From assembly GCA_016840065.1 (NCBI GenBank), contig JAEOTB010000015.1, positions 1 through 19,859 of the forward strand: a stretch of DNA of 19,859 nucleotides, read 5' to 3'. The notes beneath the pieces are model-generated. The model had not been told where the DNA came from, searched no databases, and saw nothing but the letters and a program-made list of their open reading frames with translations. This document shows positions 2 to 19,859 of the stretch, piece after piece; position 1 is the first letter of the stretch, and the number at the start of each line of letters is the position of its first letter. The stretch is from Candidatus Hermodarchaeota archaeon. GTDB taxonomy: Archaea > Asgardarchaeota > Hermodarchaeia > Hermodarchaeales > Hermodarchaeaceae. A program made the translations under genes and the position numbers.

Positions 2-715
2 GCAGCTGCTGTTTGGACCCAACTCGCTATGAAGCTAACCCCCTCTATGGAGGGCTGGGCACTGGAATATGAGAAGCGGATACGCTATGAGGAGACAAAG
101 GTCGGTCTGGAAATGGAAAGAGACGCCCCACGATCCATGACCTTGGGGATACCCGCAAAAGGGGCCAGGATTGACCCCGGCTTTCAAAAGTTCCGAGCAG
201 CCTACACAACCCTAATGGCCACCTACAAAAAGGGTATAGAGATTAGAGAAAAATATCTTCGAGGAGTAGCATGCCTGAAAGCGGCGCAGCTAAAATCTCA
301 GAGGGCCCAAGCACATCAAGAACTCCACCGCTCAATGAAATTCAATCACCTTGAAGGACTCGTGCTTGGGTTCCGGGGTGAAGCCCAATACTGGCAATTC
401 AAAACAGCACATGAAATCCTTGATGCCGTAGAACGGGTTCAAAGTGTTGTACGCAATTACCGGGAAACTGCTGAAAAGTACCTACAACGGATGAACCTGA
501 GCCAGGAGGAGGTCAATGAACTCTTCGATTGCCTCACCCTCTACGAAAGCATTGGTGACGGGTTCGCTGGCGCTTTCAGGCTTTATCGTCAGGCTTCAGC
601 AAAATGTGAGGAAGGTAAGGATGCAAAGATGTTACAGCAGCGCATCACTGCGATAACCCATCTCACCTCAACCAACCCAGTGATTTTCGTTCCTGACCCT
701 CCCCCTGTCCATTAA
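2..715 (+). CDS. Hypothetical all-alpha protein, probably 5'-truncated by the window edge
   Basis: The frame is open from base 2 (AAAVWTQLA-MKLTP...), so ATG 29 need not be the start. Amphipathic helical composition, Pro-rich tail (PDPPPVH), 21 nt upstream of the next gene. No family motif recognised. Confidence 0.7.
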   Translation, partial: AAAVWTQLAMKLTPSMEGWALEYEKRIRYEETKVGLEMERDAPRSMTLGIPAKGARIDPGFQKFRAAYTTLMATYKKGIEIREKYLRGVACLKAAQLKSQRAQAHQELHRSMKFNHLEGLVLGFRGEAQYWQFKTAHEILDAVERVQSVVRNYRETAEKYLQRMNLSQEEVNELFDCLTLYESIGDGFAGAFRLYRQASAKCEEGKDAKMLQQRITAITHLTSTNPVIFVPDPPPVH

Positions 716-722
716 TCCTGAA

Positions 723-730
723 AAGGAGGT
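723..730 (+). promoter_or_regulatory. Shine-Dalgarno site for the TPR gene
   Basis: AAGGAGGT 6 nt before GTG 737. Confidence 0.8.
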
Positions 731-736
731 AACCAG

Positions 737-1270
737 GTGTCCATAAACCTTGATGCTGAAACCAAGCAGTTAATCGCCCGGGCCCAAGAACTCCTGGCAA
801 GGTATGGAGCCAGCAATGAATCCGAACTCCCCCAGGTCAGGCAATCCCTTCTCAGCCTAATCCAGAAACTTGTGGCAAGGGCTAAACAATGCTTCAGCCA
901 GGGACAGCTAGACCAGTCACTCAAGCTTAACAAGGTTGTATTGGCAGCGTCTCGAATCCTGCAATCTAGAGGAGGCGAAGGTGTCACCCTCTACAACATG
1001 GGGCTAATCTACAAAGAGCTAAATCGTGAAGAAGACGCGCTCGAATGTTTCCTGCAGGCTCGCCAGATTGAACGAGAGCAAGGCGACCTGAAAAGCGAAA
1101 CCACATCAATCAAGCGAATCGCTGAGCTCTACCTGAAACTCGGGCAACCCGAGGTCGGCCTTGAATATTTAGAACAACTTAAGGCAATTCAGATACAGAT
1201 GGGGGATACAGCAGGGGAAACCGCGACCCAGGAAATCATCGATATAATCCATGAAGAGATGGGACAATAG
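737..1270 (+). CDS. Tetratricopeptide repeat protein (about 40-aa LGN/MalT-like repeats)
   Basis: GEGVTLYNMGLIYKELNREEDALECFLQARQI and SETTSIKRIAELYLKLGQPEVGLEYLEQ fit TPR consensus; strong SD. Confidence 0.85.
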   Translation: MSINLDAETKQLIARAQELLARYGASNESELPQVRQSLLSLIQKLVARAKQCFSQGQLDQSLKLNKVVLAASRILQSRGGEGVTLYNMGLIYKELNREEDALECFLQARQIEREQGDLKSETTSIKRIAELYLKLGQPEVGLEYLEQLKAIQIQMGDTAGETATQEIIDIIHEEMGQ

Positions 1271-1408
1271 ACACAGCTTACTCATTCAAGCTAGACGCCT
1301 CCTTCTCCCCTCCTCTTTGTATCTTGACAAAGTTTATGTTGGGTATTCTATTTTGAAATAGGACAAGTACGAAACCGAGAATTTTCTAATCAAAGGTAAT
1401 TGATTTCC

Positions 1409-2542
1409 ATGAACTCAGAAGGGAAACAGATGAACACAGAATCTAGAGGACCCCGGCTGTTATTCCTTGATAATATCAAGATTCTTTTTACGATTCTCGT
1501 GATTTTCCAGCACGTGATGGTCACTTATTCTTCTCAGGGTTGGTGGTACTATAGGGAGTCGATTCCATCTGATCCCGTCAGTAGCTTATCCTTTACAATT
1601 CTCATTGCGTTTGGAGGACTTTTTCAAGCTTCACTGATGGGATTGTTTTTCCTTCTTGGTGGCTACTTCACTCCTAAGAGTTATGATCGAAAAGGCGGCG
1701 GTCGGTTCTTGAAAGAGCGACTTGTTCGTATCGGTATTCCTCTCCTGTTGTATTATGTGCTAATCAGTCCCCTCTTGGTTTCTGTCGTAACCATCTTCAC
1801 AGCCCAACCGTTTAGTACTAACCCATTTAGCTATCTACTGTGGGGTCCAATGTGGTATCTCGCGGTACTCCTCATTTTCACAGCGGGTTATGCTCTTTGG
1901 CGTCAGATAACCAAGAGTGACTGGATTCAGCGAAGAATCCCGAAGGAACTTGCGATCCCACGGTACATCTATTTACTCCTATTAGCGATTGGCCTAGGCG
2001 CTCTGACTTATCTGGTTCGCATCGTTTCTCCCATAGACCAATTTCCGTTCGGAATTCCGGTAGCTCAGATTATTCAGTACATTCTGATGTTCACTGTTGG
2101 AGTCATCGCTGTTCGATATCAGTGGTTTGACAAGATGACCCGAAAACATGTAGGAATATGGGCGGCTACAATAATAGCTGCAATCCTGGTGGTCTTTACT
2201 CTTGGATTTACGGTTCTGGGAGTTACAGATTTTGTCGTCTTCACAGGAGGAGCATCTTGGCCTGCGCTTCTATTTGCGGTGCTAGACAATATCACCAGCA
2301 TGGGGATGATGTTTGTAGTCGTCAAAGTGTTTAAGGCAAAATTCAACAAACAAGGGCCTACTCTTCTGAACCTCTCTTCTAGCTCATATCACATGTACCT
2401 AATTCATCCACCAGTCCTTGTTGGCATATCACTTGGATTTGCAGCCATAGCCCTTATTCCCATTCTAAAAATGGTCATCGTATTTCCCTTGGGCGTTCTC
2501 GTTTGTTTTCTACTAAGTCATTATATCTTCAGAAGGCTCTGA
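1409..2542 (+). CDS. Acyltransferase family 3 (OpgC/MdoC-like) integral membrane protein
   Basis: RLLFLDNIK...VIFQH (RxxxLD...H), MGLFFLLGGYF, FLKERLVRIGIP, GPMWYL, SYHMYLIHP; about 10 hydrophobic segments. Start uncertain (TTG 1400, ATG 1409 or ATG 1430). Confidence 0.9.
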   Translation: MNSEGKQMNTESRGPRLLFLDNIKILFTILVIFQHVMVTYSSQGWWYYRESIPSDPVSSLSFTILIAFGGLFQASLMGLFFLLGGYFTPKSYDRKGGGRFLKERLVRIGIPLLLYYVLISPLLVSVVTIFTAQPFSTNPFSYLLWGPMWYLAVLLIFTAGYALWRQITKSDWIQRRIPKELAIPRYIYLLLLAIGLGALTYLVRIVSPIDQFPFGIPVAQIIQYILMFTVGVIAVRYQWFDKMTRKHVGIWAATIIAAILVVFTLGFTVLGVTDFVVFTGGASWPALLFAVLDNITSMGMMFVVVKVFKAKFNKQGPTLLNLSSSSYHMYLIHPPVLVGISLGFAAIALIPILKMVIVFPLGVLVCFLLSHYIFRRL

Positions 2543-2674
2543 GAAAACGCACAGAAAATTGAAACAAGCTCTTAGTGAAGGCTGCTCCTTAGTTGGGTTG
2601 TCTCCTTCTCACTCCTCTTTTCCCATTTAGCTATAAGGAAGTCCTTTTATCTTGTCTAGCCTGCGATAGTGTTA

Positions 2675-3754
2675 ATGACAAAGGATTCAGAGGACCGCCT
2701 TGGTAGACTTGAGCAAATCGTAGAGGCTGCTGTTAAAGCGAAGGACTGGAAGGATGTGGATGGTTTCAGGGTTGCCTTGAGGGAGCTGAGAGAAATCGGC
2801 AGCCCCACCGCAGTGGATTTCCTTGCTCGAATGCTGGAGGGTAAATCGAGAAGCATCAAGATTAGGGTACTGGACACCCTCTGGAGAATCAACGACCCCC
2901 GCGCCTTGAGTCTTCTAAAGCAAACACTGGAGACTAGCGAGAACGAAGGGATACGTCGAATGGCGGCACGAGGACTCATCCGAACTAGAGGAGCTGACGC
3001 CCTCGACTTGGTGGCTAAGGCACACCGCGAAGGACGGATTCTCTGGGATACTTTCATGGTCAAGTACATAACCGAGTTAGAAGGGGAAGAGTTCCGCGTC
3101 TTCGATATCTTGGTAGAACTCCTGCAGAGTGACAAGATGTACGCCTGGGGGAGTGCTATCTGGGGACTCGGTGCCCTCGGTGACAGAAGAGCCATACCCA
3201 TCATCGAGGAATTGATGCGGTCAAGGACGCTATTGAAAACTGGGGACTGGTACACACACTACTCAGCGGCAGACGCCCTGATCAAGCTCGGGGTCCAAAT
3301 CCCCAAGGAACGACGCCAAACACTATTCCCAAGGCATGGGGAGCTCGCACCTCAAGATGGCGTGACGGTGTACCAGGGCGAGAACCTCCCAGAAGAAGCC
3401 CTCGTCGCCATCAGTGCTGGGGAGACCTTTCAGTTCCGTGCATTGTGGTCTGAAGAACGCATGCATGAGGCCTGCCATGAATGCCGTGAATGCTGGGAAA
3501 AGGAGGAATACTTCGACCCCCCAACCTTCGACTCAGCAGCGGGACCAACGAATACGCTGGAGCTCCTCTTCGTCGTCCTTGCTAGCGCTGAAGCAGAAGC
3601 AACTAGTAAAGCTCAAAAAGCGGCTCACGCCTATCTAAACCAAAGATACTGTCTCCGACCACTGCAAGCCCCTAAGATAGAACAAGTGACCAATATGACC
3701 GCATCCGATGTTCTCCAACTACTTAGAGGAACCAAATGCTACCTCGTGATGTAG
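2675..3754 (+). CDS. HEAT/PBS-lyase-like repeat protein with an uncharacterised C-terminal domain
   Basis: Repeats such as ALRELREIGSPTAVDFLARML, VLDTLWRINDPRALSLLKQTL, AIWGLGALGDRRAIPIIEELM. TTTTAT at 2645-2650 favours a leaderless start at ATG 2675 (GTG 2669 is the alternative). Confidence 0.85.
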   Translation: MTKDSEDRLGRLEQIVEAAVKAKDWKDVDGFRVALRELREIGSPTAVDFLARMLEGKSRSIKIRVLDTLWRINDPRALSLLKQTLETSENEGIRRMAARGLIRTRGADALDLVAKAHREGRILWDTFMVKYITELEGEEFRVFDILVELLQSDKMYAWGSAIWGLGALGDRRAIPIIEELMRSRTLLKTGDWYTHYSAADALIKLGVQIPKERRQTLFPRHGELAPQDGVTVYQGENLPEEALVAISAGETFQFRALWSEERMHEACHECRECWEKEEYFDPPTFDSAAGPTNTLELLFVVLASAEAEATSKAQKAAHAYLNQRYCLRPLQAPKIEQVTNMTASDVLQLLRGTKCYLVM

Positions 3755-7481: not shown

Positions 7482-9293
7482 ATGGTGACAACCTTGAAAT
7501 GGACTCTAAATGATTCCCGGCTAGTCTATGGAGTAGCCCGAAACGACCTCCACTTCCTCGACATCACACGCAAAGGCGACCTATGCGTCACCCTAGAAGG
7601 CACCAGCATCACCCTCAAAGAAATCATCCGACGCGTAGGCGCAAAAATCCGAGAACAGGGCTACACCCGAGCACCCAGCTTCACCCTCAGGATCCCCCAG
7701 CTCCTCACCACCCAGGTCGAGAAGATCTCAGGCATCTTCAAGAGGATAATCAAGGAGCAAAAATACGGAGGCAAGTTCCGCGCCGTCTACCCCATGAAGG
7801 TTAACCCCCGCTACCCCGCCGTCAAGGCCATCATCAACTCCAGCAAAGATTACGGCCTCGAAGTCGGCACCAAATCCGAACTCTACATCGTCCTCAAGAT
7901 GTGTGGTAAAGACAAGAGCCGGCTCATCATGTGCAACGGCGTCAAGGACGAAGAATACATCGAAATCGTCAGGCAAGCCCTCGAAGAAGGCTACAAGGTC
8001 TGGATCTCCATCGAATCCATCAAGGAGGCACAAATCGCCCTCGAACGTATCCCCAAGGAAAAACTCCAACTCGCTTTCCGTGTCAAACCTTACACCTCCA
8101 TCATCAGCCACTGGGGGGCTTCGGCGGGACGTCACTCGAAGTTCGGACTCGCCATTCATGACATCATCAACCTCGTTGACGTTTTGAAAGAAGCAAAGGC
8201 TGAATCCACTGTCGTGGCGATTCATGGCCACCCTGGCAGCCAGGTCCTCGGGAACATCCTCTCCTTCGGCGAATACATGGCTCGAGTCTACATCCACCTC
8301 CGAGAACTCGGCCTCGACCAGCTCACCGTCGTCAACATGGGCGGGGGACTCCCCATCAACTACGACAACCACCTCGACCCCGATGTCACCGAATCCTACA
8401 TTCTAGCTCTAGTCAAAGCCCTCAAAGACACAATTGGGAACAAATACCCACACCCCGACATTATGACCGAAGGCGGGCGCTGCCTCACCGCCCTCTATGC
8501 CCTTCTCGTAATACGCACCTTCGACCTCCGCCATATCTTCCCCGACCCCCTCCCTGGCGAAGCCCAACAAGCCAGAACCATCATCTCCAACATGCTCGAA
8601 GACACCGCTGACCCCCTTTCCGTCCTTGCGGCTTGGCGCAGTTGGCAGAAGACTCGCGTCCTCTACAAGGAGCTCCCCGATCTCCTCGAATACGAGCGAC
8701 TTTCTGGCACCATCAAACAACAGATTCGCCGCAAATTTGTCAAGAGCCCCAACTACGAAGCCTATACTGGCGAATCCGTCGCAAAGGACCTCCTGCGGGC
8801 AGAGCATATCCTCCTCGGTAACTTCAGCGTCTTCAACGGCGCCTGCGACCATGTCCTCGTTGGACAATACTTCCCTGTCATCCCCATCAGTCACCTCCAC
8901 ACGCAACCAGAAACTCTGGTGCGCCTGACGGATATCACCTGCGACTCAGATGGGGAGATTTCCACCTATCATCCACCCATCAGCGCTAAGTCCCTCTTCA
9001 CCCAAGATGGATTCCCTCTAACGACTACAAACCGGCAGACCTGGAAGGGATTCCCCATCGGTGACTTGAAATCCGCCCCTGACAACTACCTCATCATCGG
9101 ATTAGTAGGAGCCTATCAGGACATCATCGAAATGGATCACAATCTCGTTGGTGACCTACCCGATGTAGAACTCACCTTACAGAGTGATGGGCTCTGGGAT
9201 GTCAAATGGGTCGGTGCTGCCCAAACTATCCAAGACCTAGTTCGTGAAGTGGGTTTCACGCTACCCCAGCTAGACGACCCATATATCGACTGA
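7482..9293 (+). CDS. speA: Biosynthetic PLP-dependent arginine decarboxylase (fold type III)
   Basis: YPMKVN (PLP lysine), GLEVGTKSEL, CNGVKDEEYI, SKFGL, HxHxGSQ, NMGGGL, TEGGR, NFSVF, DITCDSDG, GAYQDI..HNL; 603 aa. Confidence 0.9.
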   Translation: MVTTLKWTLNDSRLVYGVARNDLHFLDITRKGDLCVTLEGTSITLKEIIRRVGAKIREQGYTRAPSFTLRIPQLLTTQVEKISGIFKRIIKEQKYGGKFRAVYPMKVNPRYPAVKAIINSSKDYGLEVGTKSELYIVLKMCGKDKSRLIMCNGVKDEEYIEIVRQALEEGYKVWISIESIKEAQIALERIPKEKLQLAFRVKPYTSIISHWGASAGRHSKFGLAIHDIINLVDVLKEAKAESTVVAIHGHPGSQVLGNILSFGEYMARVYIHLRELGLDQLTVVNMGGGLPINYDNHLDPDVTESYILALVKALKDTIGNKYPHPDIMTEGGRCLTALYALLVIRTFDLRHIFPDPLPGEAQQARTIISNMLEDTADPLSVLAAWRSWQKTRVLYKELPDLLEYERLSGTIKQQIRRKFVKSPNYEAYTGESVAKDLLRAEHILLGNFSVFNGACDHVLVGQYFPVIPISHLHTQPETLVRLTDITCDSDGEISTYHPPISAKSLFTQDGFPLTTTNRQTWKGFPIGDLKSAPDNYLIIGLVGAYQDIIEMDHNLVGDLPDVELTLQSDGLWDVKWVGAAQTIQDLVREVGFTLPQLDDPYID

Positions 9294-9667: not shown

Positions 9668-11572
9668 TTAGGTTCTACGGTGTTTGTATAGAACAACACC
9701 AGTCATAACAACGAGTGTTACGCATATCCCAGTTATTGTTAGTACAATAATCAGAGGGGCGGCTGCTCGCGTCGATACCACTACCATGATATCAGTAGAA
9801 AGAGTGTTCCCAAACGGGTCTGCAACACTTATCCTCAATCCATATGAGCCAAGGGACAGAACACCTAGACTCTCAAGGTACCCAGTACTGTTTATGGCGA
9901 AATCGGTTGTATCGTTTACCGCCCAAGAAGCAATTCCGGAAGGATCCATGGCCTCCAGCTGTAAGCCTAGGGCCTGCCCATAAAGGAGGAACTGGAAGGT
10001 AGGTTCTGTTATCCAAGTCGGGGGCTGGTTGTCGATGACTACGGTTACCTCTGAATTGATGGTGAACCGTTTACCTGAACCATTAAGCAGCATAGTGAGT
10101 GTGATGTTGTGGGGTCCTGCAGTCAATCCAGTCAATGTGAAATTGGTATCTAATCCCACATACTTGATGTAGCCATCAACGAAGAGGTCGTAGCGGTTGA
10201 TGCCTGGATCAGGGGCGACTCCTGTCCATTCCAGGTTATAGTCTGGGCCCCGTATTGTCGCTCCATCAGGAAGGTTGTCAAAGGAGACATAGACCCGATG
10301 AATTGAGATGTTGTACGAGTTACCGATTGCTCCCGCTACAACCATAGCGAACTTGTAGGGTTCAGACATGTAGGTATCTACTTCTCCTAGGCCGATGTCA
10401 AAGGCTGCATCAACCATGGTGAGGGATTCTGAGTGGGCGTCTATAACCTTCACAATTCCATGGCCTGACCCGATGCTCTCATCGATGTGGGTCAATAAGA
10501 CTCCACCATCTGGTAGGTATGAATCGTACCCGACCTTCTGTCGCACTTCAACCAGGAAGTACTCAGAGCTAGTTACAGGTATCTTGAGTAAGTGCACACC
10601 CGATGTGGCATACTCCAAGGGGTCGACAATCACACTATCCTCAATTGGCACCTCGACTATCTGTGCGCTAGAGACATAGCCAAGTTGCATCTTCGACCAA
10701 CCCATCATATGAGCAGGGCTCTCACCTAACCCGAAGGGTCCATTCCACGACCCAGATCCCATCAACCCAAAATACCCAATGAAATCCTCCTCACCATCAT
10801 AATCATAGAGATCAGGTAGACCCAGGTCATGACCATACTCGTGTGCAAGAACCCCGATATTAGCCTGATATCCTCCTATGCTCTCTTCGGGAGTAACCGA
10901 GGCACGACTGATGGGCTTCTCATCAGTGTAAATTGTGAACCCCGACCAAGAACAGGACCAATAATCTCGCCAATCATGACTGAGTTCCTGTCCCTGTCCA
11001 GCATGTATGATTGTGACATCATCATAGTCGGAATAGTCCACGTACGGGTCTGCAGCCTCGATAGCATCCCTAACCAAGGAGAACTTGGGCTGGCTGGGAT
11101 AGCCTGTGCCGAACACATACTGGTTTCGTGGGTTTCCCAGCTGGAGCCACATAGAAGTTGTGTTGCCTGTGACTCGCTGCAGCCCAAAGGAGTTCTCGTT
11201 GTAGTACTCGTCAAGAGTATCAATAGCACCAGAGGCGACCTCCTCAGGAGTAAAGGTATGGTTCTTGTCAGTAAATTCTACGAGAATGATAAGAAGCGTC
11301 CGAGAACCTATGGCAGCCTTTGAAGAAGAGGATGGCTGAAAAGGGGGGCGAACAACCAAACCATAGGGAGAAACGCAAGGAGAGTATGAAATCTTCTGTC
11401 TATAGGTTTCAGAAGCGGTTGGTGGAGCATCCTCTAGAATCACAGAGGGTTCAGAGCTGAAGCGAGCCTCCCGTCTACTATCAAATAAGGGTATCACCAT
11501 TAGGATGGCGAGAATGGTGATGAGAAGAACCTTCTCCAGCTTTGTGTTCCCTGGATTGGAAAGGAATACCAT
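9668..11572 (-). CDS. Surface-anchored M6 family (immune inhibitor A-like) zinc metalloprotease
   Basis: LIILVEFTD, YYNENSFG, IIHAGQGQE, HEYGHDLGLPDLYD, LMGSGSW, EYFLVEVRQ..GYD..LP..GVLLTHIDES. N-terminal signal, C-terminal beta-rich Ig-like domains, then TM + KHRRT; 8 N-x-S/T sequons. Confidence 0.93.
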   Translation of the reverse strand: MVFLSNPGNTKLEKVLLITILAILMVIPLFDSRREARFSSEPSVILEDAPPTASETYRQKISYSPCVSPYGLVVRPPFQPSSSSKAAIGSRTLLIILVEFTDKNHTFTPEEVASGAIDTLDEYYNENSFGLQRVTGNTTSMWLQLGNPRNQYVFGTGYPSQPKFSLVRDAIEAADPYVDYSDYDDVTIIHAGQGQELSHDWRDYWSCSWSGFTIYTDEKPISRASVTPEESIGGYQANIGVLAHEYGHDLGLPDLYDYDGEEDFIGYFGLMGSGSWNGPFGLGESPAHMMGWSKMQLGYVSSAQIVEVPIEDSVIVDPLEYATSGVHLLKIPVTSSEYFLVEVRQKVGYDSYLPDGGVLLTHIDESIGSGHGIVKVIDAHSESLTMVDAAFDIGLGEVDTYMSEPYKFAMVVAGAIGNSYNISIHRVYVSFDNLPDGATIRGPDYNLEWTGVAPDPGINRYDLFVDGYIKYVGLDTNFTLTGLTAGPHNITLTMLLNGSGKRFTINSEVTVVIDNQPPTWITEPTFQFLLYGQALGLQLEAMDPSGIASWAVNDTTDFAINSTGYLESLGVLSLGSYGLRISVADPFGNTLSTDIMVVVSTRAAAPLIIVLTITGICVTLVVMTGVVLYKHRRT

Positions 11573-11655: not shown

Positions 11656-12852
11656 CTATTCCGTGGAATTTGACCTGAGTTGGGGGATTTTATCGAGGAT
11701 GTTCTTTAGGATGTACGCCTCCACCTGCTCCCGAAAATCTAATCCACCTATCCTTGTTATTTCGGCTAGCTCCTGAAGTACAACGTCCTTCGGTGAACGT
11801 TTCCATGGTAATCGCTTGTCCAGATCAAAGATAACCAGTTGTCCTATCTCTTCTAACGCTTTCCCCTGCTTGAGCAAATTCTCAACGACTATTCCAATCT
11901 TCTTCTTCAGGTAATCTTTTCTAAACTCAAGATCCCGTCTAGCAGCCAGCCAAACATATAGCTCTAGGAAATCGATGGGTGACCGAAGCTCGGGACCACT
12001 CCTAGGACTTTTCGGAAAGGCGTGGTGAATATACCCGTACTTGGGTTTCTCGTCTATTGAAATAGTCGGAGGAGGAAGTGACTCCACAAGTATCTCTTGA
12101 GCCGTTAGCGCTGATACCTCTTCTAGTGGGATATTGGCTTCCCCAATAACTTGGTGTAGATTATCGAGGACCTTCCTAAGGAGATGTGATTCTTCGGATT
12201 TTGATAGGAACTTCTCATAGCGTCGGAATTTAATTAATAATGAGTCGCGCAATCCGTGAATTAGTTCATCTACGGAATCAAGGTTGGTGTAGCGCAACCC
12301 ACATGCAATGACTCTTATTGCATCGGCGATAGTGCCCTCATCGTGATCCGCTAACCACCTGGTAATAAGAGATTCGAAGTATCCTTCACCGATTTTCCGA
12401 CGCTGCCTTATCACTGCCATTATGTTCTCTGTCGCTGGCTCGACTTCGTCTTTGACAACCTGTTGCAGGTTCTCAAGGCTATAGTTCTCGGTTTGTAGCT
12501 CTTTTCCTAAGCTATCATAAAGATACTCAATCCACTGCCCTTCTATGATCGAAACGCTCCTGATATAGGAGTCAACATCGGGAACTGGATTCCCTCGCTC
12601 TTCTCGACGAGTGAACTCGCTCATTATGATTGAGCAACATCGCTCAACATCAGTAATTGCTCCGTCCAACATGACACGATAAACTACTCTAGCCATTTCG
12701 ATGTGGACGCCGCACTGCTCTGCAATCGTTGATGCAGCTTCATCCGAGACTCGACGAACCTTCTCTTCAAAACTACCATGGGTCTCCTCAAATTCACTGG
12801 CAATACGTCGGCTTAATCTTCGTACCTCATCATCGTCGAAAAGCCGGCCCAT
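11656..12852 (-). CDS. Hypothetical 398-aa soluble helical protein
   Basis: Long ORF of charged helical composition. Start reassigned to ATG 12852 (MGRLFDDDE) with SD AGGTGGT at 12859-12865; the 49-codon upstream extension is AT-rich and looks intergenic. Confidence 0.8.
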   Translation of the reverse strand: MGRLFDDDEVRRLSRRIASEFEETHGSFEEKVRRVSDEAASTIAEQCGVHIEMARVVYRVMLDGAITDVERCCSIIMSEFTRREERGNPVPDVDSYIRSVSIIEGQWIEYLYDSLGKELQTENYSLENLQQVVKDEVEPATENIMAVIRQRRKIGEGYFESLITRWLADHDEGTIADAIRVIACGLRYTNLDSVDELIHGLRDSLLIKFRRYEKFLSKSEESHLLRKVLDNLHQVIGEANIPLEEVSALTAQEILVESLPPPTISIDEKPKYGYIHHAFPKSPRSGPELRSPIDFLELYVWLAARRDLEFRKDYLKKKIGIVVENLLKQGKALEEIGQLVIFDLDKRLPWKRSPKDVVLQELAEITRIGGLDFREQVEAYILKNILDKIPQLRSNSTE

Positions 12853-13077
12853 GTTGATACCACCTAGTATTATCTTGAGGGCTATGATAAACAGTCCTAG
12901 AAACACTCTGGTAACCCAACTATGGTCCGTATCTAAATAAGTCTTGTTAGTGATAAAAAGATAATACTTGATTAGGATGATCGGAATCCTGGGATTCACT
13001 GGAGTTAGGTGTATCCACTACCGGACCGGTTTACCATGGGAAATTTCTTACACCAAGGATTGGTGTTCTAACAGTGT

Positions 13078-15355: not shown

Positions 15356-18097
15356 ATGGTCGGATTTAGCATTCGAAATCGTATCCTTGCAGCCTTCCTC
15401 ATACTACTTCTCATCCCAACCGCCTTCCTTGTATTCTTTAACGTTGGGTCGATAGTACAATTATCTAATACCAACGCGCAACAGGCTTCAGATGCCCTGC
15501 TGGCTGAAGAGCTCGACTACCTCCAGAGCATAGCCAATAACGAATCATCTCGCATCGATGAGTTCTTCGCCCAAATCGAAGCCGAGGTCACTATGCTCGA
15601 TCTCTACGCAGAGGGGCTCTTTAACGACGAAATAAACGTAACACCATATGTAAGTTACTGGTGGGATGATGCAGAGGAGTTCGCCGAGACCGGTCGAACA
15701 ATACCTGGTCAGTATTATGACCCTGATTATGATTCTGACATATCCTTCGATTGTAGCTGCTATTATCTACCTCGAGACAATTATCCTGGGGTAGACCCCT
15801 TTGACTGGAGCAGCGAAGAAGAAGCCCTCCTCAACTACTCTTCGAACCTAGACTACATGTTCCAGAACCTCCATGAGGCCAATCCAAACTATATCTGGAT
15901 ATACATGGCCTTTGCTGGAGGCCTCTCCCTCTTCCGCAACTACCCCTATGATACAATGGAGTGGACCCAGTATGAGGGCGACGGTAATCCCGCAACCACC
16001 TCAGACGATTGGGACCCACAAACCTGGGATTTCTACACAGGACCCGCGGGGACAACCGATAGCACCGTATTCACTAGCCCCTACTGGGACCCTGTAGGTT
16101 ACCTGATGTCCTGTGGTCGTCCTTCACGGTGGTCCAACAATAGCTTGATTGGTGTCGTGAGTGTAGACATAACCATTTCCCAATTAAATGACAGCGTCAT
16201 CGATATTGACGTTCTAGACAACGGCTATGCATTCCTCATCGACAATTCTGGTAACTCGATAGTACACCCCGCTCAGGGCGACCAGTCAATCGGGATCACC
16301 GCTCTTGAAATGGCAGGAACATCTGCCGCAGAAACAAGCACTTTCAACAGTATAGTATCTACTATGGCAGGAGGTAGTACTGGGTGGAGTACCTACCACA
16401 AGAACGGTCAAAAATGGTACATAGCTTACGCCCCCGTTCCCACCACCGAATATTCATTGGCTGTTGTGGTTCCCGAGGAGGATATCATTGGTGCAGTGTT
16501 GGCATTACAGAACTCGATTCTCACCCAGAGCAACACACAAATCATCCTTCTCATCGCGATACTAATTGCCGCCTTCGTTATCCTTTTCGCTATCAGCATC
16601 ACAATCTCCAACCGAATCACACGACCCATCAAGGAACTCACAACACTAACCAGCTTGATGGCAGAAGGCGACCTCTCCCGTGAACTCCGGGGCGACGCCA
16701 GCGAGATGGTTCCAGAAATTGGGACGCTCCACCAAGCCTTTAGCAACCTATTGACGAGCCTAAGGTTTGGAAATACCGCGTATTATGGTGGCGACCTTGA
16801 TAGGGCGTTTGCGAACTACACCAAGGCGTTGGAGCTCTTCAGGACCACGAAGAACCAACGAGGAATTGCCTTGGCAAAGAACAACCTAGGCAACATCTAC
16901 CGGGCTTGGGGCGATGCATCAGCAGCTGAACGCCACTACCGAGAAGCCATCACCATCGGTGAGCGCATCGACGATGTTCAAGGTCTCGCCTCCCGATATA
17001 ACAACCTGGCTCTCTTGAGGATGGACCAGGGCAAGAACAAGGAAGCCTTGAAACTCCTACAGAAAGCCCTGGGCTACGACGAGAAGGCAAAGAACGATCG
17101 CGGCAAAGTACTACGGCTAGCCAACATCGGACTCGTCCATCTTCAGATGAGACATAAAACCACAGCAAGAGAGCATTTCGAGAAATCTCTGGCAATCGCT
17201 GAACGTATCAAATACGACAGGGGCATCGCCTATGCCAAACTCCACTTGGGAACTCTCCTGATTAAAGAGAAAGACTACATAGAGGCACAGTCCCAGCTTG
17301 ACTCGGCTCTCACCATCGCTAAGGACCTTGTTGACGTATCGCTTGTCGCCCAGTGTCTGGACAGGCTGACTGAGGTCCAAAGGGAACTAGGCTTTACAGA
17401 GACCGCTGACCGTTACGCAGCCCTCGTCACAGGACTCAGACAGAGAATGATCAGTCGAAAGGTCGTCCTCTTCTGTATCGACTATTCAGGATCAATGGGT
17501 GGACCCCGTATACGCACCGCAATCCGAGGAGCTAGAACCCTCCTGGACAAGCAGGTCAACCCACAGGACGATGTAGGAATCGTCACCTTCAGTGACCGAA
17601 GCCATGTCGCCCTTAAACTAACAAGAGTCGAAACTGGGAAAGACCAGATAGTGAGCGCACTTGAGAGCCTGATGTATCCACAGGGCAACACAGCCTTCTA
17701 CGATGCACTAGGTGATGCAATGAAGCTCCTAGCCGAGGTGAAGGGCAGCGAACAACGCTGGCTAATCGCATTGACCGATGGCCTCGACAACTCCAGCCGC
17801 GACCACACAATCCAAGTCACACCTGGAAAAGAGATAGGAACAAGAGGCGACAAGTCGGTTCAGGGAGTCATTCACAGGAGTCTACTGAACGTGAACCTGA
17901 TCATCATCGCGGTCGGTGACGAGCTTCGACGTGTCAAGTCAGGGCTCGAAAGACTTTGCACAGAATCGCCCAGAGGAAAATACATCGGTATCTCAGATCG
18001 ACGCGACACCGAAAAAGCCATCACCGACGCCTTCCGAAAGGTGCGGGAGATTCTGGCACAAATCGACGTGGAGGGAATCCGCTTCGACCGAGAGTGA
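15356..18097 (+). CDS. Membrane receptor: TM - dCache - TM - HAMP - TPR repeats - vWA
   Basis: TM1; dCache motifs (WIYMAF, NYP, FTSPYWD, IGVVSVDI, GYAFLIDNSG..IVHP, YIAYAPV..TEYSLAVVVP); TM2; HAMP (ITRPIKELT...EGDLS...EIGTLHQAF); 5-6 TPRs of about 40 aa (NNLGNIY, YNNLAL, ANIGLVH, LHLGTL); vWA with IDYSGSM, GNTAFYDAL, LIALTDG. Confidence 0.92.
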   Translation: MVGFSIRNRILAAFLILLLIPTAFLVFFNVGSIVQLSNTNAQQASDALLAEELDYLQSIANNESSRIDEFFAQIEAEVTMLDLYAEGLFNDEINVTPYVSYWWDDAEEFAETGRTIPGQYYDPDYDSDISFDCSCYYLPRDNYPGVDPFDWSSEEEALLNYSSNLDYMFQNLHEANPNYIWIYMAFAGGLSLFRNYPYDTMEWTQYEGDGNPATTSDDWDPQTWDFYTGPAGTTDSTVFTSPYWDPVGYLMSCGRPSRWSNNSLIGVVSVDITISQLNDSVIDIDVLDNGYAFLIDNSGNSIVHPAQGDQSIGITALEMAGTSAAETSTFNSIVSTMAGGSTGWSTYHKNGQKWYIAYAPVPTTEYSLAVVVPEEDIIGAVLALQNSILTQSNTQIILLIAILIAAFVILFAISITISNRITRPIKELTTLTSLMAEGDLSRELRGDASEMVPEIGTLHQAFSNLLTSLRFGNTAYYGGDLDRAFANYTKALELFRTTKNQRGIALAKNNLGNIYRAWGDASAAERHYREAITIGERIDDVQGLASRYNNLALLRMDQGKNKEALKLLQKALGYDEKAKNDRGKVLRLANIGLVHLQMRHKTTAREHFEKSLAIAERIKYDRGIAYAKLHLGTLLIKEKDYIEAQSQLDSALTIAKDLVDVSLVAQCLDRLTEVQRELGFTETADRYAALVTGLRQRMISRKVVLFCIDYSGSMGGPRIRTAIRGARTLLDKQVNPQDDVGIVTFSDRSHVALKLTRVETGKDQIVSALESLMYPQGNTAFYDALGDAMKLLAEVKGSEQRWLIALTDGLDNSSRDHTIQVTPGKEIGTRGDKSVQGVIHRSLLNVNLIIIAVGDELRRVKSGLERLCTESPRGKYIGISDRRDTEKAITDAFRKVREILAQIDVEGIRFDRE

Positions 18098-18102
18098 GGT
18101 GA
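18096..18102 (+). promoter_or_regulatory. Shine-Dalgarno overlapping the upstream stop codon (translational coupling)
   Basis: GAGGTGA overlaps TGA 18095-18097 and lies 6 nt before ATG 18109. Confidence 0.8.
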
Positions 18103-18108
18103 AAAGAA

Positions 18109-19859
18109 ATGGCAAGAAGTATACGCAGTAACGTTTTGCTCAGCTTCATCATAATCACCATCGTATCGATGGGGGTTATTGGCGGCATAAGCATCTACTT
18201 CACAAACGCAATCGGCCAAAGCACCACGGTTCAAAGCTCCGATGCGCTGAACAATCAGATTCAGGAGAACCTGAATGGGAGCTCTGATCTAATCGCAGGA
18301 ATTATCCGAGAAAAATTCTCCAGCGCAGAAGCCATGGTGCTTGCGATGGCAAATGAACTCGAAGCCCTCTTCAACAACTCACGCTACGGATTCAGAGAAA
18401 GTTATTATGACTTCTGCTTCGAATACAACTACTCAGATCCAAATCTAGCACCCGCAGACACTCATTATGACTCTGCTTATGATGTGTACCTCTCCTGGAG
18501 CTACGCCAGTTACTACTTCAGAGACTCTGTTTACGGAAATTACACTCTGTACGACAACAACCCCAACCTGAACGATACCATCGAACGAGTGGCAAATATG
18601 GATTATATTTTCCAGAATATCCATGACACTGCACCTGAGTTTCGCTGGCTCTACATTGCCTTTGCTGGGTTTGACTTGTTCATCAATTATCCTGGGAGTA
18701 TCGTCGCTGGTACCGACGCTGAACGGGATGCTGAATCCTACCTACCCACCACACAACCATGGTATCTAGATGTAGTGGCTGGTAACGGTGACATCGTCTT
18801 CACCGAACCCTATTTTGACGAGATAGACGGTGTTCCACTCATCACCATTGGTCGTGCAGTATACTACCCCAATGGAACCCTGATGGGTACAATATGTGGG
18901 GATATTTCAATTCAAGACCTTGTTACACAAGTTGAGACCTTCGAAATCCTTCAAACGGGATACGCCGCCCTCATCCAAACATCTGGCCTCGTCGTCGCCC
19001 ACCCAGAAGCAGGAGCAACTCTACCACAAATCGAAGATGTGGAGGTCAACACCGCAGACAGCTCATCTGCACTATCAACGTCACAAATTACTACGATAAC
19101 TTCAGGAACATCAGGGCTAATCACATACACCAGAAATGGGCAGGACCGGTACCTAGCCTATAGACCTGTAGGAAAAGGCGATTATCTCTGTCTAGTAATC
19201 GTCCCGGTGGCTGAAGCCATCGCTGCCATCGCTCCCTTGCAACAAAACATCTTACTAGCAAGTCAGACGACCACGTTGCAAGTACTCCTAATCATCGTCT
19301 TGATAGCAGTTGCAGCCCTCGGCATAGGATTGGTCATCGCGAACAGCATCATGAACCCCATCACCAGACTAACGAAGCTCGCGGTAAGCCTCTCCACCGA
19401 ACGAGCACGCCAAGACATCATGTCAGGACTAGACCAGGAACTCAAGGACCTCGGAGGAACAGGAGAAATCGGCGACCTAACCCGAGCCTTCCGCGACATG
19501 GTCGACTCGGTCCGAGAAGAAGAACACCAGCTAGCAACCGGCAGCAAACTCTGCCCCAACTGCCAATCCCCCATCGGTCCACGCTGGAAGACCTGCATCT
19601 ACTGTGGCCACGACCTAGAAGCACCAGCCCCAGTCGCCAGCGAAACCGAACGAGTCCGCAGACTCATCGCACGCGGCAAGTGGGAAGAAGCCGCAAGGCT
19701 TGGAGCACCCGCCGTTTCACCCCTCGCCAAGGCACTCACCGAAGGTAACCCCGACGAACGAAGAGGTGCAGCTGACGCCCTTGGAAAACTAGGCGATGCA
19801 GCAGTAGAGCCCTTATCCCGTGCGCTCAAAGACGACGACGAATACGTAAGATGGCGATC
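18109..19859 (+). CDS. Second membrane receptor, 3'-truncated: TM - dCache - TM - HAMP - zinc ribbon - HEAT repeats (not in ORF track)
   Basis: Manual translation is open for 583 codons to the window end: [21 protein letters not shown]..., MDYIFQNIH...[46 protein letters not shown]2, [10 protein letters not shown]...[22 protein letters not shown], then [42 protein letters not shown]. Confidence 0.92.

Follow-up and report, generated by a model that had tools for sequence, protein, structure and literature searches.

A receptor gene pair at the contig end

The stretch analysed here, referred to as the window (19,859 nucleotides, contig JAEOTB010000015.1 of a Candidatus Hermodarchaeota archaeon), is the whole of contig C96 of a 2.6 Mb assembly. 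At its 3' end it carries two adjacent genes, A and B, which encode transmembrane (TM) proteins with a dCache_1 sensor and a HAMP domain. No overlapping contig that would extend C96 past this end was found elsewhere in the assembly. Since the window is the entire contig, gene B is 3'-open, and its open reading frame (ORF) covers 18109-19857 (583 amino acids, aa). The features of the pair are the following.

15356..18097, forward strand: gene A, output subunit, TM-dCache_1-TM-HAMP-TPR-vWA (ORF of 913 aa)
15488..16510, forward strand: extracellular dCache_1 of A, with a long insertion past helix 1; pocket residues Y243, D245 and D271 kept
16604..16765, forward strand: HAMP of A, whose helix 2 runs unbroken (residues 453-478) into the first TPR helix
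16766..17449, forward strand: TPR solenoid of A, about six repeats; Asn 487, 510, 513 and 550 invariant
17459..18073, forward strand: cytoplasmic vWA of A with a complete metal ion-dependent adhesion site (MIDAS; D709, S711, S713, T779, D808)
18090..18111, forward strand: stop of A, overlapping Shine-Dalgarno (SD)-like run, 11 nt gap and start of B
18109..19859, forward strand: gene B, partner subunit (TM-dCache_1-TM-HAMP-zinc ribbon-HEAT), truncated where the contig stops
18238..19248, forward strand: extracellular dCache_1 of B; pocket residues W218, Y235, D237 and D265 kept
19333..19518, forward strand: HAMP of B, with a longer acidic connector
19552..19857, forward strand: family-specific tail of B, a zinc ribbon (residues 482-503) followed by PBS-lyase-type HEAT repeats

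Pfam profiles match A at residues 176-371 (dCache_1), 417-470 (HAMP, weak), from 467 (TPR) and 704-870 (VWA), and B at residues 148-358 (dCache_1), 409-470 (HAMP) and 516-582 (HEAT_2); the match to the zinc ribbon of B falls slightly below the cut-off. Each protein has two TM segments, and an extra weak hydrophobic stretch in B (residues 359-377) aligns with the last dCache strand. In both, dCache_1 lies between the two TM helices and is followed by HAMP, as in dCache_1-HAMP transmembrane receptors. A and B share 30% identity over residues 5-470, which include the sensor and HAMP (E 5e-54). An earlier sequence-only reading of this DNA had described them as paralogous TM-dCache-TM-HAMP genes 11 nt apart, with the SD of the second lying over the stop of the first. 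Both ORFs, the motifs it quoted as common to A and B, and the gap are as it described, and a GAGGTGA run overlaps the stop codon of A. An SD-like word occurs at 83 of 87 related A/B junctions (loose pattern, no shuffle control). A sigma-70 promoter scan, which does not cover archaeal promoters, gave no match.

Kinase, methyl-accepting chemotaxis protein (MCP), cyclase and phosphatase domains are absent from the Pfam matches of A and B, and neither protein carries any of the canonical dCache outputs (histidine kinase, MCP, GGDEF/EAL, cyclase, PP2C or Ser/Thr kinase). The proposal of a signalling layout without catalytic output thus holds for A and for the completed relatives of B. The two proteins are the only dCache proteins detected in the genome, in which no MCP domain was found.

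The cytoplasmic arm of A consists of the TPR solenoid and the vWA domain. In the AlphaFold model (pLDDT 82, with HAMP poorly resolved as a monomer), HAMP helix 2 continues straight into the solenoid, which is followed by the vWA fold; R470, G472 and N473 are invariant at the HAMP-TPR junction. TONSOKU and LGN/PINS are the natural proteins of solved structure closest to the solenoid, followed by OGT and kinesin light chain. Both sequence and fold rank LGN/PINS and kinesin light chain among its best natural matches, and they share an Asn-lined groove typical of peptide binding. However, they are soluble adaptors, not fused to HAMP, and the resemblance may go no further than the kind of TPR. The vWA search named no special relative and an Atlas search gave no usable match. 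The start of the MIDAS is intact in 86 of 88 A proteins, and likewise in eukaryotes. Among the full-length A homologues (P0001-P0058), all those with a name are Asgard (Thor, Loki, Heimdall, Hod, Hermod, Odin), and others come from Sigyn and from the cultured Lokiarchaeum ossiferum. Occurrence is uneven, with A present in 10 of 60 related genomes, many of which are incomplete.

In B the connector is longer and more acidic than in A (family medians of 39 residues and a charge of -5, against 30 residues and -0.5). Protein P0127, 90% identical to B, continues for about 71 further residues of HEAT repeats and then ends, so that full-length B is expected to have roughly 654 aa. Because this relative ends in HEAT repeats, the second gene does not appear to finish in a conventional catalytic domain, in agreement with the sequence-only reading. 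The zinc ribbon-HEAT tail is found in 8 sequence clusters only, all from this family. B stops at a median of 13 residues past HAMP, and at most 26 residues past it in 80 of the 85 other loci. Since most B proteins end this close to HAMP and the tail is confined to one family, the conserved unit, judged by gene comparison, is A plus a B without output, and the tail is a local addition. A role of the tail as an E3 ligase was considered and rejected, the completed relatives of B having no RING domain.

Subunit pairing and sensor pockets

B, or its start, follows A in all 74 genome loci with room for it, mostly after 2-16 nt, so that the lack of conserved pairing that would have told against the first reading is not seen. 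At seven loci (L098, L100, L103, L104, L105, L125 and L128, with Hermod, Sigyn and Promethearchaeia among their labels) A has a decayed pocket, whereas the Tyr and Asp residues of B are intact; there, a signal would therefore have to cross from B to A. At L137-L139 and L143 both genes have lost dCache, B being reduced to a TM-TM-HAMP protein of 150 aa, and the pair is retained behind a multi-TM gene. This gene, seen at L137-L140 and L143, encodes a membrane protein of 241-246 aa with about six predicted TMs and no Pfam match, and stands before the sensor-less A' (575 aa) and B' (150 aa), whose missing sensor it may replace. Finally, four eukaryote-type proteins (P0196, P0216, P0221 and P0256) are B-A fusions with four TMs, whose first module belongs to the B clade and whose second belongs to the A clade, and this fusion in some eukaryotic proteins argues for an A/B heterodimer. 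On these genomic grounds (pairing, output-less B, pocket decay and fusions) the heterodimer suggested by the sequence-only reading is likely, and we consider it probable that the two proteins make up a membrane receptor, an obligate heterodimer with a TPR-vWA output.

In such a receptor the two dCache domains would dimerise outside the cell, and ligand binding to this dimer would move TM2 of each subunit. The unlike HAMP halves of A and B would together give a single four-helix bundle, from which helix 2 of the A HAMP would reposition the TPR solenoid and the MIDAS vWA, so that a cytoplasmic partner is bound or released. With B providing the second half of sensor and HAMP, each dimer would carry one bulky TPR-vWA arm.

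The TM-dCache_1-TM-HAMP order and the Tyr/Asp amino-group site are shared with PctA/B/C and Mlp24/37 (PMC8915833, PMC4822843), and, like MCPs, the pair has no enzyme of its own. It differs from bacterial dCache_1-HAMP receptors in its TPR-vWA output, its two paralogous subunits (one normally without output), its long dCache insertion and the loss, in this lineage, of the carboxylate-binding Arg. Known relatives include dCache histidine kinases, PP2C phosphatases and cyclases, and the list of Cache outputs is short; archaeal and eukaryotic Cache domains have been ascribed to transfer from bacteria (PMC4822843, PMC8915833). No paper describing the A/B system was found, subscription papers lying outside the coverage of the search, which agrees with the statement of the first reading that it knew of no characterised system with this layout. 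The pair adds TPR-vWA as a class of Cache output, together with a probable two-paralogue design.

The residues that bind the amino group in dCache_1AA domains (Y144, D173 and D146 in PctA) are found as Y243/D245/D271 in A and Y235/D237/D265 in B. The carboxylate set (Y121, R126 and W128 in PctA) is incomplete, the equivalent residues being W219/W224/F226 in A and Y211/Q216/W218 in B, which in this lineage puts the pair outside dCache_1AA; at the Arg126 position the family mostly has Glu for A (72%) and Glu or Asp for B (81%). The full amino-acid motif is present in Loki and in the eukaryote/virus orthologues. As both of these groups carry the carboxylate Arg, this residue is probably ancestral, and the ancestral ligand is predicted to be an amino acid. 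Arg is absent from both subunits in all 61 loci linked to an arginine decarboxylase (see below). Of the dCache_1AM motif of amine sensors, which in PctD includes a cation-pi aromatic and the R103-D133 pair, the comparison covered the shared aromatic and Asp positions, and these are present. The amino-group residues being kept and the Arg lost, a ligand without a carboxylate, such as agmatine, would fit. In the decarboxylase-linked lineages, including this one, the ligand could well be an amine (agmatine or a polyamine), which would tie an amine outside the cell to agmatine synthesis within; we hold this with reserve, and less firmly than the dimer or its partner.

Orthologues in protists and giant viruses

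A search with the sensor profile recovered A-type proteins from Platysulcus (P0175), Trimastix (P0195) and Stygiella (P0266), a fusion from a Durusdinium assembly (P0216), and a protein of an uncultured virus (CAH6420882.1) named 'VWA Cache recognition domain protein'. The alignment of P0175 with the cytoplasmic part of A spans 460 columns (E 4e-46). In the eukaryote/virus group, four metagenomic A genes have a B-like dCache gene adjacent to them or two genes off. One locus, L195, contains 18 copies of a Mimiviridae-type promoter word in 18.6 kb, for which reason the metagenomic contigs with A beside B probably belong to giant viruses. The contig that carries the fused P0196 is eukaryote-like. 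A word-indexed search with the Platysulcus protein gave no further named eukaryotes. These protist and viral proteins have the same architecture as A and B and fall in the same clades; they differ from the pair of the window in keeping the amino-acid motif and in a B that is divergent, tandem or fused, and no SpeA or propeller was seen beside them. No characterisation of them was found in the openly searchable literature.

In the careful sensor tree, Asgard and eukaryote/virus sequences are united in an A clade (support 100/97) and a B clade (99/96) against prokaryotic outgroups, and the eukaryote/virus sequences are nested within each. Approximately unbiased (AU) tests rejected a separate duplication in eukaryotes (p=0.002) and in Asgard (p=6e-6), with the reservation that they were run under LG+G4 on 32 rows and that the choice of groups followed the earlier trees. 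In a quick, unrooted tree of the cytoplasmic part, the eukaryote group stands beside the Heimdall-type group. Long branches and thin eukaryote sampling limit these trees. In a high-GC group and in the group typified by L197, A and B carry a sensor from outside the clade. CP070760.1 has two A/B pairs, L042 and L095; its second A keeps the Arg motif and groups beside the eukaryote A sequences (95/86).

The pair of the window has the features that mark the proposed Asgard-eukaryote class: the conserved HAMP-TPR junction, the MIDAS vWA, the adjacent paralogue B and a placement in the A and B clades. We regard it as fairly likely that eukaryotes inherited A and B as a pair from an Asgard ancestor. 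The sequence-only reading had seen a eukaryote-like logic in the recruitment of partners. This does not stand by itself: bacterial MCPs likewise signal by partner recruitment and not by catalysis, and the link to eukaryotes is one of orthology. The trees fit an Asgard-to-eukaryote descent of both subunits which, if true, would place a surface receptor at the origin of eukaryotes, and the A/B pair seems to represent a class of receptor that predates eukaryotes and has so far gone undescribed.

Conserved neighbours and competing explanations

Two genes travel with the pair, in variable order and orientation: one for a beta-propeller protein (76 loci) and one for a SpeA-like decarboxylase (65 loci). 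The latter is present in the window.

7482..9293, forward strand: SpeA-like arginine decarboxylase dependent on pyridoxal phosphate (PLP), conserved neighbour of the pair (NF003763, 335 bits against a cut-off of 369)

It is the sole arginine decarboxylase detected in the genome, in which no pyruvoyl arginine decarboxylase was found. Of the 11 genomes with A, 10 have the decarboxylase; of the 50 that lack A, 4 do. The first reading had suggested MoxR, kinase or small GTPase neighbours. Neither MoxR nor kinases are linked to the pair, and the linkage of the vWA gene to MoxR was dismissed, the two MoxR-like genes lying on other contigs. The GTPase part of the suggestion stands for the sister genus, where such a gene follows B, and only there. 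The gene (L190:14872-15471, L030:6916-7071) encodes a small GTPase of Ras/Roc-like type whose G3 and G4 boxes are degenerate; it lies directly 3' of B at three sister-lineage loci and is absent at L021 and L191. Separately, the A/B pair of L197:3407-7878, whose B has a zinc-ribbon tail, is neighboured by a Band 7-zinc ribbon gene and by two genes that are GTPase-like, with a faint DO-GTPase2 match in one of them. Heimdall-type loci (L035-L041, L082 and L124) have an AbrB/MazE-like regulator directly upstream of A, and most of them a second, shorter PLP decarboxylase after SpeA.

The propeller is found in 4 of 61 genomes, each time beside A/B, and in none of the 19 genomes of this family. The L. 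ossiferum propeller, docked on A together with the HAMP of B, scored 0.53, against 0.00 for the best control; the docking mark is reached by 58 of 80 solved pairs and 2 of 110 mismatched pairs, and scores of 0.60 or less among the pairs reaching it comprise 7 solved pairs and both mismatches. The runs agree in at least 74% of contacts and the partner pLDDT is at least 84. These models lend weak support to the propeller as a partner of A plus the B HAMP. A long form of the protein (L137:3166-4992, also at L098, L100, L103, L104 and L143) is composed of a propeller, a beta-sandwich and an alpha/beta platform. In Foldseek, BBSome core subunits take its first nine places (E 8.5e-17 to 5.8e-13), and BBS1/2/7/9 have the same domain order; however, the TM-score is about 0.3 and the C-terminal domains are different in most lineages. 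VIA-align did not uphold a BBSome identity for the propeller domain taken by itself and found a generic fold (COPB2 Z 24.6, NHL Z 24.5). No paper on an Asgard BBSome-like protein was found.

The propeller protein would be the likely partner of the arm in Thor, Hod and Loki lineages, a step held less firmly than the dimer itself. In this family it was not found, and for this reason the zinc ribbon-HEAT tail of B may stand in for it; we suggest, tentatively, that the tail is a tethered scaffold substituting for the propeller. Further downstream, the receptor may act on agmatine synthesis, the least certain element of the proposal. The most inclusive version, a class inherited as a pair, fused in protists, captured by viruses, served by a coat-like propeller partner, retuned to amines and here with a tail in place of the propeller, is unlikely to hold in all its parts.

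The sensor also resembles that of the eukaryotic proteins alpha2delta-1 and CACHD1. Its profile aligns collinearly with residues 69-246 and 432-598 of alpha2delta-1, including the VWA_N region, with an E-value of 1e-30 that sums several stretches; alpha2delta sequences are outside the trees, so this is likeness only and not descent. The long VWA_N-type dCache insertion is common to A/B and alpha2delta, and is also found in prokaryotic relatives with other outputs. A MIDAS vWA occurs in A and in alpha2delta/CACHD1; in the latter it is inserted in the extracellular dCache, whereas in A it is intracellular and follows TM2, HAMP and TPR. The vWA-in-dCache insertion has been dated to the last eukaryotic common ancestor (Gumerov 2022). 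A protein of 993 aa, P0134 (L198:1416-4397), encoded in an operon-like setting on an apparently archaeal contig and placed outside the A/B clade, has a vWA in dCache at the alpha2delta site, then a second dCache, a TM and a zinc ribbon.

The gene pair could be explained otherwise than by a heterodimeric receptor. dCache-HAMP receptors are normally homodimers, and in most lineages the sensor of A is complete in itself, so that A might act as a homodimer and the output-less B as a decoy or dominant-negative form, damping A through output-poor mixed dimers or by sequestering ligand. This is improbable, since B is never missing beside A, the pocket of A decays where that of B is kept, B persists without any sensor, and the two are fused 1:1 in eukaryotes. 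The sequence-only reading had instead presented TPR-vWA on A and zinc ribbon-HEAT on B as co-equal outputs that define the system. The tail is indeed complete and conserved in the family (at 55-60% identity, where the sensor has 67-71%), and other zinc-ribbon tails are found on B at L095, L141, L145 and L197, but its restriction to one family, the ending of nearly all other B proteins at HAMP and the similar HEAT repeats scattered through this genome leave very little room for this view.

The likeness to alpha2delta-1 and CACHD1, the top solved matches of the sensor profile, and the BBSome hits of the long propeller form would also suit an auxiliary or trafficking subunit, in which vWA and a coat-like propeller control the placement or turnover of a channel or transporter. 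We find this quite improbable: the vWA is cytoplasmic and C-terminal and not inserted in dCache, the conserved HAMP is a signal converter, no channel or transporter is among the conserved neighbours, and the propeller alone is generic. For the ligand, the heterodimeric receptor has a more serious competitor to the amine. The pocket may still read an amino acid (e.g. arginine or ornithine), or an unrelated small molecule, in this lineage. The amino-group residues and the ancestral motif suit an amino acid, and the decarboxylase link fits the substrate as well as the product, but the carboxylate Arg is missing in both subunits and its position is acidic in most relatives; this alternative is somewhat unlikely.

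Several observations weigh against the heterodimeric amine receptor with a TPR-vWA output that we favour. The case for the heterodimer rests on genomics. The decarboxylase lies 6 kb from the pair, outside the operon. Arg is also missing in 5 of 8 unlinked loci, and its co-variation with the decarboxylase on the tree amounts to 2-3 independent contrasts and is not significant (sign test, p 0.5-1). The polyamine receptors McpU and TlpQ are distant matches only (E 2e-3 and 1.6e-4). The A protein of the window has Trp and Phe at two pocket positions where the family has Glu and Trp, and may bind something else, or nothing. Lastly, the domains of the tail are promiscuous, with 27 HEAT ORFs and 92 zinc-ribbon ORFs genome-wide. 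For work on the system, A, B and the propeller are all present in the cultured L. ossiferum (L084), and standard ligand screens are well matched to soluble dCache domains.

Other genes noticed in the window are the following.

29-3754: a 228 aa gene of no known family, a short TPR gene, a gene for an MdoC-like acyltransferase and a HEAT-repeat gene
9668-11572, reverse strand: membrane-anchored M6 (immune inhibitor A-type) metalloprotease, adjoining the decarboxylase
11656-12999, reverse strand: acidic helical protein of 447 aa with no Pfam or NCBIfam match

Genes with HEAT repeats and zinc ribbons are expanded in this genome.

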